Origin: Flectonema sp. DT1601
Taxonomy: Eukaryota
Direction: 5' to 3'
Length of the DNA: 64,000 nt
Assembly (NCBI GenBank): GCA_964019425.1
Contig: OZ025790.1
Location: 620,001-684,000 of the forward strand
Positions 29,301 to 38,014 of the stretch are shown one piece after another (position 1 is the first letter of the stretch; each line of letters starts with the position of its first letter). The notes beneath the pieces were generated by a model. It was not told the DNA's origin, did not search any database, and saw only the letters and a program-made list of their open reading frames with translations. The translations under genes and the position numbers were made by a program.

Positions 29301-31541
29301 TTAGAGCTTTCTGGTTCTGAGGGCCTTCAGAGCCTTGGCAACTTGCTCGCTGCTGCACTCGTTCTCAAAGAAGGTTCCCTGAGCGTCCTGCTCGCACTGG
29401 CCAACTGGCTGGGTGCTGCTGGTGGCGAATCCACTGCAGGTGGTGGAGGTCAGGTAGTCCTTCATCACCAATCCAGCTGAGGTGCAGCTCTCAACCATCG
29501 CGGAACCTCCTCCGGCGGTTGGAAGACACTGGCCAACTGGGAACGAGTGGGACTCACATCCCTGGCTGCATGCTGAGTCGGTGCACTGCTTCTGGGTGAA
29601 TGAACCCGATGGAGGACCTGGTGATGGAGGGGTTGGTGGTGGGGATGGTGGAGTTGGTCCACTTCCCGACACCTCCGAGGTACATGGAGAGTTCTTCAAC
29701 AAGCACTGGTTCGATCCCCTGGACACTCTGATGTATCCGGACTCTCCCCAGCTTGCTCCCCAAGAGTTCTTGATGATCCAGTAGTCAGCACCGTATCCAA
29801 CAATGAGCACTCCGTGGTCGAGTTGCTTGGACTCGCAGTTGGTCATCACTCCTCCGGTGTATGTCTGCCATGAGGTCGCGTCAACGGCAATCGAAAGCGG
29901 TCCGTTGGTTGACACCCAGGTGGCCATCTCGGTTTCGTCGTGTGCGATGTCCTTGTGTCCGCTGATGGTGGTTCCGACAGTCATCGAAGACACGTCCTTG
30001 CAGCTTCCGGAGTCTCCTCCTCCGCTGGTGTATGGGTACGACTCTTCGGTGACAATCTGTCCCTTGTGTGCACTTAACAACCATTCGAAAGCTTGGTCCA
30101 TTAACCCTCCATTGCAGCCATATATAAATGTATTTTCTAGTGCCAAGTAAAAGATGTGGCAATAAACGGATACCGTCCCCCAGGCCGTTCCAGTGGAGCA
30201 CCAGGTTGGCACAGTCGGAGGATGCGGTCCAGGTAGGTTAAGGTGGCTACCACACCCAAAAGTCCACAGCAGAGTAACAAAGTCGTGCTCGGGCCGTAAA
30301 GGCTAGCGGTACGTGTTTTCGCCCGCGACAAGCCGTGTGATTACGGTACAGGACGGGGTCAACCGCACTTAACAGTCGGATTCCATTGGTACAATCAGGA
30401 AGATACCCCTACTCGCATGGAGGAGCAAGCCCCTAAGGAGATATGTGTTTTTCACAACATGACAACACAATTAACAAGAATACAGCACGGGCGTGAGGAA
30501 AAGCCGTAACATGGAAAGTAGGAATAAAAATTAAAAGGTGTGAGGAAGGGTTTCATTCTCCACACTTAATGTGAAGGTGTACCAAGGATTACGCGCATGG
30601 GTTAACCGACACGTGATGAAACCAACGGGCTGGGGAGACAACAAGGGACGGAGCCGAAAACGGCACCCCCCGAAGGGGCACGCCACAAAAGAAAATAAAA
30701 ACCCGGGTGATCTTGTAAGGCTCCAGATCTATAAAGTTCCGGGCCGGTTCACCCCCTCTGGCAGTATGTCGTTGCTGTCGCCTGTTGGTCGTTAGACCGA
30801 AGGAGCTACCGGGAAAATAAAAAGGAAAGTAACAGTCAAAACTTCGAGAGGTGACGCTCCGACCGCGCCCCGAGTTATACCAGAAAACAAAATAAAGGAA
30901 AAAGTTAAACGGGATGCCAGGTTTTGTGCACCTTTTCACCCCCAGTTGGGGGTTACCCCTACATCCCACAGTAGGTAAGGCCCAAACACGCGGTCCTGGC
31001 CCCCGCGGAATGTTAACCCTCCATTGCAGCCAGAATCGGTTTTGTCACATGAAACAAGTTCCTGCTCTGAGACGGATGTCAACTTGTTACCAGCAAGGAA
31101 GTTCTGTCCTTCAATTCCTCCGGTGGTGGAGAACGCCCAGCACGATCCGCACTGAGCCTGGTTCTTCACCTGGGTCACGGCTCCCTTGCTTCTCCAATCA
31201 ACAGCGTCGGCAGCAGCTCTGTTCTGTGACTCACTGAACATCTTGGCTGGGCCAGCCTTGGTAGGAACGTTCAGGCTGTGGTACACTTTGAACTCATCAG
31301 CGCTCAGGTCAGAGTAAACGTTCATTCCGAAGCTCGCTCCAGGGTTTGAAGCCTCCAGCTCAGCTCCCTTCATCATGTTGTTCTTGAAGATCGATCTTCT
31401 CTTCACTTCGTCAGATCCGGAGTACTGCTTTCCGTAGGTCTCCTTGTAGTTGCTCCACAACAGACCCTCGTTCTCCTCAACGTAGCTGAGGGGAAGGGCC
31501 GAGGTGGCCGCGGCCATGGCGAGCATGCAGGCAGTCTTCAT
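29301..31541 (-). CDS. Cathepsin L-like (papain family C1A, cruzipain-type) cysteine protease, copy 1, interrupted by an 892-bp insertion
   Basis: Signal peptide, ERFNIN/GNFD-type propeptide, [29 protein letters not shown], Pro-rich hinge and Cys-rich C-terminal extension. Removing 30121-31032 restores ...[17 protein letters not shown]. Confidence 0.95.
30101..31032. repeat. 20-bp target-site duplication TTAACCCTCCATTGCAGCCA at 30101-30120 and 31013-31032
   Basis: Perfect direct repeat flanking the insertion. The outermost base could be shared by chance with the element's TATATA end. Confidence 0.95.
30121..31012 (-). mobile_element. Non-autonomous, non-coding retroposon-like element (892 bp) inserted at the GCNGGL site
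   Basis: TSD-flanked, no credible ORF, no terminal inverted repeats. GC-rich stem-loop modules are separated by U-rich linkers. The 3' end shares short motifs with the LINE 3' UTR at 34832-34912. Confidence 0.85.
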
Positions 31542-32345
31542 TTTTTTGAAAATGTGTGTGTTAAAGTAGAAATAACTGAGGGGGAAGAAACAATAGGTTT
31601 GTGAGGTACAATGAAATATATACAACGTCGATCCGATCCAATCCAATCTAATCCAATTAGTAGGGCGGGAGAAGCCTCCATTGTTTTCTTTTGTAGTTGT
31701 TTTAGCCTTCGGGAGTAGAAATTAAATTTTCTTTCTTTCGACCACAAACATGAAAACATTCAACTCAACACAAAATACACAAGGATCACGACTGTCACGC
31801 GGATAAAGAACATGCGGCACCGTGGTGCAGCAATGAATGTAACCAAAAAAGCTTGAGAGGGAATCAAAAATAACCTTTTGCCGAAGAATGCCTAAGGCAA
31901 TCAAATCAACTCAGAGATGGAACAAGGATAATGAAATCACCCTTGGCGTTGTTTTTCGTGTCTGCACCACAAAACATTTTGCTACAAATGTATTATAACT
32001 ACGTATATCGTAATATTGCAGCGGATGTTGGGATAGCATGTATATAATGGAACAATAATAAATAAATAGATAAAAAAAGACTTTCCAAGAATATCAAATA
32101 GAATAAGACAACTTCAAATCCAAGTTGATAGAATTAGGGAGAGGAAGGACACGCTACTAACTCCGAATGTGTTTCTTAAAGCTTTCTGGTTCTGAGGGCC
32201 TTCAGAGCCTTGGCAACTTGCTCGCTGCTGCACTCGTTCTCAAAGAAGGTTCCCTGAGCGTCCTGCTCGCACTGGCCAACTGGCTGGGTGCTGCTGGTGG
32301 CGAATCCACTGCAGGTGGTGGAGGTCAGGTAGTCCTTCATCACCA

Positions 32346-33341
32346 GTTCAGAAAGCATTCCTCGACGTCGTTCCCGATGATCCGCAGCATCGAGTCGGTG
32401 TTCTTCGCTACACATGCCTTCTCCCAATCCCGGTTCGAATCCTTCAAGATCTTCAGGGCGAGCTTCACATCCGGACGTAGGTGCTCCGTGTCGAATTGCC
32501 TGGGTTTCGGCATATGTTGCGTTTTCCCGTCGTATGCCTTCAGTCGTAGGTGGTTGACCATCACCGGTTTATGTGTCGGGATGCCGGTGTCGCTTAGAGT
32601 CTGGGTCCTAGACTCCGCTGTTATGGCCGCCGCAGCCGTGTTGTTCAACAGGACGGCGTCGATTCTTCTTAAACCCAGTCCGCCCGTGCAGGTCGGTTCG
32701 GCGCTGTTCATCGCTACCGCGCAATCGGTCCAAAGTCCTTGGCTCGTCGCTAGTTGAATGCAAGCGGATTCGCGGGTGTCCATGTTGAAATCACCACCGA
32801 TCAACACTGGCACATCCCCCAGCGCTGCCGCTTCCCGGAGAGTCAATTTCAGGAGTTCTTCCGTGTTCGCTTCTGATCGTACATCTCCGTAGAACGAAAT
32901 TGCATGTAGAACCTTGCCTTTTCCGTATGCTACGCCAGCGTGTACGTATCTTCCGGAGTCTTCGAGTACCTTCGGTCCTCTGATCCTTCTAATCGGAGCG
33001 TTGTGTTTCGCGAGGACCGCTACTCCACCCGTGGTCTTGTAAGACCGTTCGTCGATTCTTCTCCTTTCGGAGGGTTTGCTGAAGACCGCCGACCAGCCCT
33101 CTCGTTCGAGTTGTTTGAGCATCTTCTTCTGTTCTGTTTCAGAAAGAAGTGTCTCTTGCACTAGGATGATGTCGGCGTCCAGCGCTATCACCGCTGCGAC
33201 GTTTTTCATCATCGTCGTGGTATTCACCGTTGCCACCGAGAATTCCGAAGGGAGTCTCATTGTTGCGTTGTCGTCCCCAATCCGTCCTGTGTCGGTCCAG
33301 CCGCTTCCTCTTCTTTCTGTGTTGTGGAGGTTCCGAGTCAT
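32346..33341 (-). pseudogene. ORF2 N-terminal part: apurinic-like (APE/EEP) endonuclease, truncated before the RT
   Basis: Probable start MTRNLHN at 33341; EEP motifs as listed for copy B; fuses to the cathepsin tail at 32345/32346. Confidence 0.85.
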
Positions 33342-37073: not shown

Positions 37074-37352
37074 ACATCTTGGCTGGGCCAGCCTTGGTAG
37101 GAACGTTCAGGCTGTGGTACACTTTGAACTCATCAGCGCTCAGGTCAGAGTAAACGTTCATTCCGAAGCTCGCTCCAGGGTTTGAAGCCTCCAGCTCAGC
37201 TCCCTTCATCATGTTGTTCTTGAAGATCGATCTTCTCTTCACTTCGTCAGATCCGGAGTACTGCTTTCCGTAGGTCTCCTTGTAGTTGCTCCACAACAGA
37301 CCCTCGTTCTCCTCAACGTAGCTGAGGGGAAGGGCCGAGGTGGCCGCGGCCA

Positions 37353-37435
37353 TGGCGAGCATTCTCTCGTATTGCATCCCGGCCAGGCTCGGTAGTTAGG
37401 TATGTATCGGGCCAGGTTGTTGGAGTGGCGAGCAT
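37353..37435. repeat. 63-bp copy of retrotransposon ORF2 sequence inserted in the cathepsin copy 2 signal peptide with a 10-bp duplication
   Basis: 37363-37425 matches 35985-36047 (61/63); flanked by TGGCGAGCAT at 37353-37362 and 37426-37435. Confidence 0.9.
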
Positions 37436-38014
37436 GCAGGCAGTCTTCATTTTTGAAAATGTGTGTGTTAAAGTAGAAATAACTGAATCAGGGAGAGAGA
37501 GAGAGAGAGGAAAGAAATAATAAATATTAATAAAATAAAATAAAACAAAATACAACATTATATCGATCCAGGAGGGACAAGTCAAGCGGAAGCTCCAGTG
37601 AAAGTCTGTAAACTCGCTCTCTAAAACTCGACAACCCCAATGTCGGTGGCAGTCTTCATTTTTTAAAACATCCTGAGAAATAACTGAAATAACAAGTAAA
37701 GGAAACAATAAATATCATATTAACACGTTAAGTCCCCTCTTCTTCTGAGATTCAAAACAACAATAAGTTAGTAGTGAAATAGTTAATATCGAGACGGAGT
37801 AGAAATCTAAAGACGGAGTGGAACAGAAGATTGAAAACAAGTTTCAGTAGTTGAATACAACATTTATTAATACAAATCAAACCATCGGATGGAATGCTGC
37901 AATCAGTAAACAGTCACAGTCACTCCCCTCGGGGATCAAGCAAACAGTCGAATCAATTCACACTTAGACTTTATCTATTAAATGCTTAAGATAAGTCATT
38001 TCCCGCATGTGAAT

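Follow-up and report, generated by a model that had tools for sequence, protein, structure and literature searches.

A young, two-ORF LINE of the APE type and an 892-bp partner element appear to insert at one and the same base of the GCNGGL codons in several cathepsin L paralogues, likely through enzymatic recognition of the target followed by target-primed reverse transcription. We give this reading a probability of about 0.7. The host is likely a diplonemid, a marine protist. Evidence for independent insertions at a single nucleotide comes from five interrupted cathepsin records and from the junctions in the window, by which we mean the whole 64,000-nt stretch analysed (Table 1).

Table 1. 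Cathepsin L gene parts, target copies and element pieces mapped in the window.
Positions	Strand	Feature	Basis
29301..30100	-	Cathepsin L copy 1, 3' half (cruzipain-like, DUF3586 C-terminal extension)	Pfam
30101..30120	-	20-bp target site duplication, downstream copy	Identity to 31013-31032
30121..31012	-	892-bp non-coding, non-autonomous element	ORF, tRNA and Rfam searches
30173..30226	-	Predicted 3' stem-loop of 892-bp element	Folding and similarity to LINE 3' UTR
31013..31032	-	20-bp target, upstream copy (codons S-G-C-N-G-G-L)	Pattern and alignment
31013..31541	-	Cathepsin L copy 1, 5' half (signal, I29 propeptide, mature enzyme start)	Pfam
32173..32351	-	Cathepsin L copy 2, 3' remnant	98% identical to 29298-29476
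32349..33341	-	LINE A, ORF2 residues 1-330 (APE domain), 3' side broken off	99% to P0001
33338..34670	-	LINE A, frameshifted remnants of putative separate ORF1	Three-frame translation
34303..34515	-	RT-region piece (ORF2 aa 777-847) inside ORF1	tblastn 94%
34748..34812	-	Predicted HDV-like ribozyme, first base at LINE 5' junction	Nested-pseudoknot descriptor
34813..34832	-	Target copy between LINE B and LINE A (A-GGT variant)	Pattern and junction reading
34833..34912	-	LINE B 3' UTR, predicted stem-loop	Folding and junction reading
34913..37069	-	LINE B, ORF2 residues 856-1576	97% to P0001, ORF list
37074..37450	-	Cathepsin L copy 2, 5' remnant	Alignment to copy 1
37363..37425	-	63-nt internal LINE piece in copy 2	97% to 35984-36048

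The preliminary description had reported a 19-20-nt target in three copies, and a pattern search of the window found it where claimed: GG(C/T)TGCAATGGAGGGTTAA lies on the minus strand at 30101-30119, 31013-31031 and 34813-34831, with no further match in the window at up to 3 mismatches. Shuffled windows averaged 0.03 matches, and none of 100 shuffles held three. The copies at 30101-30120 and 31013-31032 are 100% identical over 20 nt and bracket the 892-bp element; the duplication was measured around this element, each LINE copy being seen with at most one intact junction. Reading of the junctions also bore out that the 892-bp element (31012) and LINE A (34812) begin on the base following GGGTTAA, and that LINE B and LINE A stand head to tail with the target alone between them. 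That intervening target reads A-GGT as against T-GGC in gene copy 1, two differences in the first 4 of 20 nt. A second 892-bp copy, in another flank, shows both differences at its 3' junction (runs X1 and X2 of the three). Intact cathepsin copies and contigs with an empty site both occur, which makes the motif a target in the host and not the element's own terminus; in the empty-site contigs the 20-bp target is single (3 of 3 runs).

In gene copy 1 the 892-bp element is flanked by a Peptidase_C1/I29 half and a Peptidase_C1/DUF3586 half (Pfam). The 3' half matches PF00112 (E 4e-42) and PF12131, and its 266 aa, from the Met after GGL, were found on 3 ENA contigs; the 5' half matches PF08246 and PF00112 and equals record P0337, on 2 ENA contigs. 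Gene copy 2 is more broken up. Its 5' remnant aligns to copy 1 in two stretches, one of 289 nt (100% identical) and one of 63 nt (97%), and contains a LINE piece, also of 63 nt, bracketed by a 10-nt duplication. The LINE pieces meet copy 2 at internal breaks (~37074 and ~32350), not at the target; the copy may have been scrambled afterwards by deletions.

LINE A and LINE B belong to one young family, being 97-99% identical to a 1,576-aa APE+RT protein. This protein, P0001, matches PF03372 at aa 45-250 (E 9e-11) and then PF00078 at aa 611-827 (E 6e-24), and its best PDB sequence match is L1 ORF2p (E 2e-17); the ORF2 piece of LINE A likewise matches PF03372 (E 9e-12). By this predicted order of domains, APE then RT in ORF2, the LINE is an APE-type non-LTR retrotransposon. 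We infer a separate ORF1 in LINE A, including its limits; it has no Pfam match, and its stop overlaps the ORF2 start as ATGA. The LINE B piece of ORF2, frameshifted near 35250-35290, comprises thumb, zinc knuckle, an unassigned domain and a Cys/His-rich tail, and its 3' UTR closes in a short A-rich end without poly(A). The CCHC zinc knuckle after the RT (C239, C242, H255 and C260 of the piece) is at least 90% conserved among 82 rows. A structure model of the piece (pLDDT 87) resembles the C-terminal half of the L1 and R2 proteins. Its residues 1-326 align to R2 with Z 13.4 and rmsd 5.1 over 282 residues, and to L1 with Z 7.8-9.2. The region past the zinc knuckle is helical in the model, residues 330-540 carrying no assignment; a single-sequence model of the unassigned domain reached pLDDT 36. 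Foldseek returned no match at E up to 0.001. No RNase H family was matched in P0001, P0002 or P0029 at E up to 1 (Pfam), while RNase H is present in 21 of 82 distant relatives.

The family is small, at 12 protein records, including four distinct full-length ORF2 sequences of 1,576-1,577 aa that are at least 99.3% identical. A sister family, P0002, has 22 records at 47% identity. In a 40-row RT tree P0001, P0002 and P0029 of Flectonema neradi grouped at 100/99, with no named reference element among the rows. A HMMER search found 521 relatives; a search by protein words, with the LINE B piece as query, gave 0 hits among 7,995 candidates. A metagenome scan gave two loci at 25% identity; no ORF in the list of either was recognised as a cathepsin.

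The LINE begins exactly with a predicted HDV-like fold, which was the only match of our descriptor on either strand of the window and was matched 0 times in 100 shuffled windows; the descriptor was composed after the sequence had been seen. Rfam had no match to this predicted ribozyme, and gave one chance-level snoRNA match. The minimum-energy fold at the LINE 5' end had z near 0, by a method that cannot represent a pseudoknot. In the 892-bp element neither an HDV-like nor a hammerhead core was found.

The longest ATG-started frame in the 892-bp element spans 59 codons. ARAGORN found 0 tRNA genes in it, and Rfam no match to a tRNA-, 5S- or 7SL-derived head at E up to 1; lacking such a head, it was rejected as a classical SINE. 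Its 3' stem-loop aligns locally to the LINE 3' UTR with a score of 31. When the last 140 nt were shuffled, 0 of 1000 trials reached this score; when the whole element was shuffled, 33 of 1000 did, and against the whole element the similarity is modest. At the 5' end the score between LINE A and the 892-bp element was 21, equal to the shuffle mean of 21, in a comparison of these two sequences only. The stem-loop in common, though of modest similarity, together with the same target and the lack of coding capacity, suggests a SINE-like partner of the LINE.

We tallied 34 protein records, and 20 of them have GCNGGL: 15 are intact and five are broken directly after the motif. Four of the broken records run into the 892-bp element (P0337, which is the window's own, P0308, P0299 and P0181). 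The fifth, P0302, runs into a 5'-truncated LINE copy that probably continues in P0011: the 14-step tail of P0302 equals ORF2 aa 360-373 in the +1 frame at 14/14 positions (next best 3; best of 300 shuffled tails 8), and P0011 starts just past its end point on an equally long contig. The upstream halves of the five are 56-100% identical to one another, fall into four paralogue classes and have an 11-residue protein context in common. The interrupted paralogues on other contigs thus sustain the core of the preliminary description, an APE-type LINE with a non-autonomous partner at one base of multicopy cathepsin L. The weightiest evidence comes from outside the window, from proteins predicted on other ENA contigs. 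It is at the protein level, with records joined by equal contig size. Some of these records could be haplotypes, or duplicates of a single event; P0337 and P0308 are 100% identical in their coding part. Among the proteins examined, no cathepsin ran into the full-length LINE 5' end.

Empty sites are represented by six intact full-length records in the window gene's cluster and by contigs that skip 912 nt in 3 of 3 runs. One uninterrupted paralogue contig of run X1 uses other codons at GGL. Inside the LINE pieces, runs X1 and X2 gave zero depth and X3 almost none, which says nothing about absence. C-terminal halves that start with MDQAF carry little weight, since the same start results from a break further upstream, as was seen in an apparently intron-split family; we discounted the C-halves of clusters P0194 and P0219 as explicable by such upstream breaks, e.g. 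introns. Among relatives, 5/5 cathepsin records of Diplonema papillatum were intact, as were all 15 examined of the 23 in cluster P0188. The junction motif had 0 matches in viral contigs.

Split cathepsins and LINE ORFs co-occur on three of the seven LINE contigs, contigs being matched by equal size. The contigs sized 178086, 25152 and 6105 have no cathepsin among the records examined, and the one sized 229491 has a single cathepsin record, which is intact. That four of seven LINE contigs have no split cathepsin among these records would suit a loose preference as in ingi/L1Tc, with a degenerate consensus, cathepsin genes as one hot spot and many copies elsewhere; L1Tc itself occurs genome-wide, singly or in tandem, according to the accessible text of PMC5814959. 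The family is small, yet of the five LINE contigs longer than 100 kb three have split cathepsins and one more has an intact copy; each true element end with a visible flank falls at the target; and the 11-residue context recurs in all five interrupted genes. We consider a loose preference unlikely, though the most credible of the alternatives.

Repeated targeting would also be mimicked if gene conversion or segmental duplication had carried one or two original insertions from paralogue to paralogue. The coding parts of the tandem copies are near-identical, four records have the same 892-bp tail over 25 residues, and upstream of the site P0337 and P0308 are 100% identical. But P0181 has only 56-65% identity to the others, its differences come to within 19 residues upstream of the site, if not nearer, and three different starts fall at the same base, those of the 892-bp element, the full LINE 5' end and the 5'-truncated LINE. 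We regard such spreading as quite improbable.

Less probable still, to the point of being very doubtful, is that the locus is a misassembly or library chimera, or that the 892-bp piece is a spliced non-canonical intron. Copy 2 does contain five odd junctions, LINE-internal jumps occur in other records, and the LINE pieces are covered by no run. However, the same junction is found on several contigs, in divergent paralogues, and the variant 892-bp 3' junction in two sequencing runs. The skip of 912 nt by contigs of three runs could suggest splicing, and about 97% of introns in hemistasiid diplonemids are non-canonical according to the part of PMC12621601 available, but the same part gives 97-98% canonical introns for Diplonemidae. 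The skip is explained by intact genomic copies, one of which (P0345) has an upstream frame like that in copy 1, and the 20-nt repeat offers no in-register GT-AG pair at any cut point.

Under site-specific insertion, the element would be transcribed together with the host gene, in the same orientation, and the predicted HDV-like ribozyme would free the LINE RNA at its first base. ORF2 would bind the 3' stem-loop common to both elements, nick the bottom strand just before the Gly-Cys codons, and nick the top strand 20 bp further, after GGGTTAA, leaving the 20-bp duplication. With the target restored by this duplication, tandems of the B-target-A kind would become possible. Loss of the broken genes is likely covered by intact paralogues. 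A fuller version, which we hold as a tentative proposal with somewhat less than even odds, is that a diplonemid LINE is strict for the 20 bp of DNA under the conserved GCNGG, is self-freed from polycistronic RNA by its own ribozyme and carries its partner along, leaving the host to escape only by synonymous codon changes. If true, a GCNGG-specific LINE would amount to a codon-level arms race inside an enzyme motif.

In the accessible parts of reviews, the targets of site-specific LINEs are RNA genes, repeats or other transposons. The cathepsin LINE is likely one of few retrotransposons aimed at a conserved protein-coding motif, not at RNA genes or simple repeats. The protein-coding targets found otherwise (RHS, MASP) are trypanosome-specific families; what is new here is a different LINE lineage with a conserved enzyme motif as target. 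Because the target lies under such a motif, it can be tested whether a multicopy protein family serves as a safe harbour and whether the host escapes by synonymous changes. The APE is open to assay, as near-identical full-length ORF2 records are available, and the enzyme would be a new APE with long target specificity. We found no cathepsin-targeting element in the literature searched, which left out most subscription papers, and the seven supplements of PMC10161547 had no match for 'site-specific' or 'target site'.

SLACS and CZAR, like R2, have a restriction-like endonuclease and RNA-gene targets; the cathepsin LINE has an N-terminal APE domain. It does resemble R2 (28S rDNA) and SLACS/CZAR (spliced-leader genes) in its apparently strict site in a tandem array, as the accessible texts describe these (PMC3774820, PMC4640811, PMC5814959). 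An HDV-like ribozyme frees R2 from its host co-transcript, according to the available part of PMC3774820; for the cathepsin LINE it is predicted only. By features, not by clade placement, the cathepsin LINE is also like the Tx1/R1-clade APE LINEs such as Keno, which in the part of PMC4640811 available combine APE, one fixed site in a multicopy sequence and target duplication.

The preliminary description knew of no described equivalent, which was too strong in view of ingi/RIME in RHS genes and TcTREZO in MASP pseudogenes. TcTREZO of Trypanosoma cruzi, as described in the accessible text of PMC5814959, is likewise site-specific and mostly within a multicopy protein-coding family, inserting mostly in MASP pseudogenes; it is a composite of genomic pieces with a species-specific surface-protein target, and that description names no APE/RT partner. 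Closer are ingi (a LINE) and RIME (a SINE), which both use one hot spot within the coding part of RHS genes in trypanosomes (PMC7563717, in the part available). Like ingi/L1Tc and RIME, the cathepsin LINE is an APE-type LINE with a non-autonomous partner in a euglenozoan, uses one site within the coding sequence of a multicopy gene family and leaves the gene in two halves; tandem copies are a further likeness to ingi/L1Tc, as would be the HDV-like ribozyme cutting at base +1 that is predicted here. L1Tc has one ORF, RNase H, a 2A peptide and poly(A), whereas the cathepsin LINE appears to have two ORFs, lacks poly(A) and has no RNase H match in Pfam. L1Tc and its partner have a 5' hallmark in common; the cathepsin LINE and its partner have the 3' stem-loop and no 5' similarity. 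Copies of L1Tc are dispersed widely, as far as the accessible account goes. Finally, the RHS target is genus-specific, while that of the cathepsin LINE is a conserved motif of papain-family proteases.

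The preliminary description had placed one 19-nt motif at three points in the cathepsin L locus. All three were confirmed, with no further occurrence in the window at ≤3 mismatches, and none of 100 shuffles reached three matches. The repeat bracketing the non-coding 892-bp element is 20 nt long, identical in its two copies, and encodes S-G-C-N-G-G-L. The gene halves on either side carry the I29 propeptide, Peptidase_C1 and a DUF3586 extension, and the best named cathepsin among the matches listed is Diplonema papillatum cruzipain (64%). The host is probably a diplonemid of another species than D. 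papillatum; the cruzipain orthogroup numbers 13, 17, 28 and 47 in four diplonemids, according to an excerpt of PMC10161547. The base following GGGTTAA is the first base of both the 892-bp element and LINE A, a 5′ piece, while the 3′ end of LINE B immediately adjoins the third target copy, which has two mismatches to gene copy 1 among its first four bases.

Features of the window (window positions)
Feature	Position	Strand	Remark
892-bp element	30121–31012	−	Inside gene copy 1
Target copies	30101–30120; 31013–31032; 34813–34832		
First base of LINE A	34812		
Skipped by run contigs	Between 30100 and 31013		912 nt
X1 contig	29796–31121		Uninterrupted paralogue
ATGA overlap	33338–33341		LINE
Candidate DNA-binding part	About 35430–36090		LINE B
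Jumps inside LINE copies	32173–37450		Direct orientation
ORF1 spot joined to RT sequence	About 34300		
Predicted membrane-anchored protein	7506–9062		Weak beta-lactamase-family match (E 2e-4, below curated cut-off)
BspA-type LRR gene and ubiquitin-ankyrin gene	23463–26422		Adjoining
Bifunctional DHFR-thymidylate synthase	47820–49346		
Open reading frame, ≥2,119 aa	About 57640–64000	−	Enters from window edge; Gly/Asp-rich repeats resembling RTX-type calcium-binding repeats

Contigs of all three sequencing runs skip the 892-bp element together with one repeat, and the cluster of the window's gene holds six intact full-length records. The motif is therefore host sequence, as had been proposed, and not the element's own terminus. 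Since intact gene copies exist, splicing is unnecessary as an explanation of the skip (intron figures were taken from an excerpt of PMC12621601). We regard it as very improbable that the locus is an artefact or the element an intron; that the cathepsin-interrupting feature is real is well supported. Runs X1 and X2 contain the 892-bp element with a variant 3′ end, whose two base differences match those at the junction of LINE B with LINE A; the X1 version tracks cathepsin for 23 nt beyond the repeat before diverging, which would fit an insertion in a paralogue. This pair of differences reflects either a paralogue-specific spelling or a few target bases carried on the tail of the element RNA. 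The uninterrupted paralogue on an X1 contig spells its GGL codons unlike the target and is a possible escape variant.

The reading frame of an interrupted gene continues into the inserted element, so insertions outside the window could be sought through predicted proteins from other contigs, rather than through DNA. P0181 (62% identical) has GCNGGL followed by the same 25-residue tail as in the window, the one such case among 120 cathepsin matches listed; cluster look-ups yielded P0299 and P0308, which share that tail, and P0302, with a different one. The P0302 tail follows LINE ORF2 aa 360–373 in the +1 frame for 14 of 14 steps (3 at the next best place, 8 for the best of 300 shuffled tails), and the ORF2 record P0011, from a contig of equal size, starts about 13 residues after that match. 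Together, P0302 and P0011 mark a 5′-truncated LINE at the same target base. Among the protein records examined, none has a cathepsin that runs on into the 5′ end of a full-length LINE. The window's own upstream half, P0337, is present on two contigs.

Upstream halves of the five interrupted records are 56–100% identical and fall into four paralogue classes; set beside this diversity, spread of the insertions by conversion seems quite improbable. Among 34 records tallied, GCNGGL occurs in 20 (5 interrupted, 15 intact) and the motif is missing in 6, with other spellings in 8, none interrupted, numbers too few for a test and including 3 not tied to the same contig set. Seven LINE-bearing contigs, told apart by size, have split cathepsins on three, intact ones on one and none on three in the records read. 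Records were joined to one another solely by equal contig size, and some are possibly haplotypes of one event. A looser hot-spot preference for the cathepsin site strikes us as unlikely.

LINE A and LINE B both derive from a single family: P0001, a 1,576-aa protein with APE and RT domains, matches A at 99% over aa 1–330 and B at 97% over aa 856–1576. RNase H, looked for in P0001, is absent. The family is young, as the 12 records of its cluster are 98.5–99.5% identical and four are full length. A separate, now frameshifted frame 5′ of ORF2 is read as ORF1; its stop codon and the start codon of ORF2 overlap in the sequence ATGA, an arrangement suggesting that the two may undergo coupled translation. 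SART1 reportedly has a comparable overlap. In a structure prediction from 82 rows (pLDDT 87), the C-terminal half resembles L1 and R2 proteins from the thumb to the zinc knuckle, with about 200 residues beyond this region lacking a fold assignment; the confidently modelled alpha/beta domain past the zinc knuckle is a candidate DNA-binding part. The closest named LINE protein, P0029 from Flectonema neradi, is 47% identical. A 40-row RT tree, which holds no named reference elements, unites P0001, the sister family P0002 and this Flectonema protein at 100/99. The sister families P0002 (22 members) and P0029, at 47% identity, have a similar C-terminus. A distant LINE relative in another stretch (L002, 6527–12949) has a ubiquitin C-terminal hydrolase domain (PF00443, E 2e-5), followed by its endonuclease and RT region.

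The LINE pieces join gene copy 2 at internal breaks, and two further LINE fragments are lodged within that copy. Direct-orientation jumps recur inside LINE copies of the window, P0010, P0107 and P0026; in both the window and P0107, RT sequence meets ORF1 at almost the same position. Such breaks and jumps could arise by template switching, by microhomology repair or through chimeric assembly.

An HDV nested double pseudoknot descriptor, based on the consensus and written after the sequence had been seen, matched once over both window strands, starting exactly at the first base of LINE A, and in none of 100 shuffled windows; Rfam gave no match for this candidate. The 5′ ends of the LINE and the 892-bp element are unrelated, and a search for a ribozyme in the latter found none. 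At their 3′ ends the two share two blocks, the arms of a predicted stem-loop. Shuffling the last 140 nt 1000 times never gave as high an alignment score, but 33 of 1000 shuffles did when the whole element was shuffled. Stringent LINE/SINE pairs are marked by common 3′ stem-loops (PMC3747384, excerpt).

Three different element starts use one base, with a 20-bp duplication, sense orientation, tandem arrangement, and both intact and interrupted paralogues. We favor, at a probability of roughly 0.7, targeted insertion in which elements would be co-transcribed with the host gene, the LINE RNA released by the predicted HDV-like ribozyme and bound through the predicted 3′ stem-loop, and the target nicked twice, 20 bp apart; insertions would be tolerated because the cathepsin family is large.

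Specific non-LTR targets given in an excerpt of PMC4640811 are rRNA, spliced-leader, tRNA and snRNA genes, transposons, microsatellites and telomeres. The literature searched yielded no cathepsin-targeting element. An excerpt of PMC10161547 mentions D. papillatum LINE-1 and SLACS-like ORFs without targets, and those of PMC12278014 and PMC13580325 hold nothing further on this comparison. The preliminary description knew of no equivalent, a claim countered by TcTREZO, mostly within MASP pseudogenes (PMC5814959, excerpt), and by ingi and RIME in trypanosome RHS genes. L1Tc-clade elements carry 5′ HDV-like ribozymes (PMC4035085, excerpt). Checked for four features of L1Tc, as characterized in part of PMC5814959, the cathepsin LINE lacks RNase H, a layout with one ORF only, poly(A) and a 5′ hallmark in common with its partner, and is therefore not filed in the ingi/L1Tc clade. 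RHS is a precedent for a coding-region target: it carries a hot spot for ingi and RIME, which split the gene into two halves, and over half of the family is predicted to be disrupted (PMC7563717, excerpt). The cathepsin system operates like ingi/RIME in RHS; its site lies in a conserved enzyme motif, and undamaged sequences of the LINE enzyme are available for testing.
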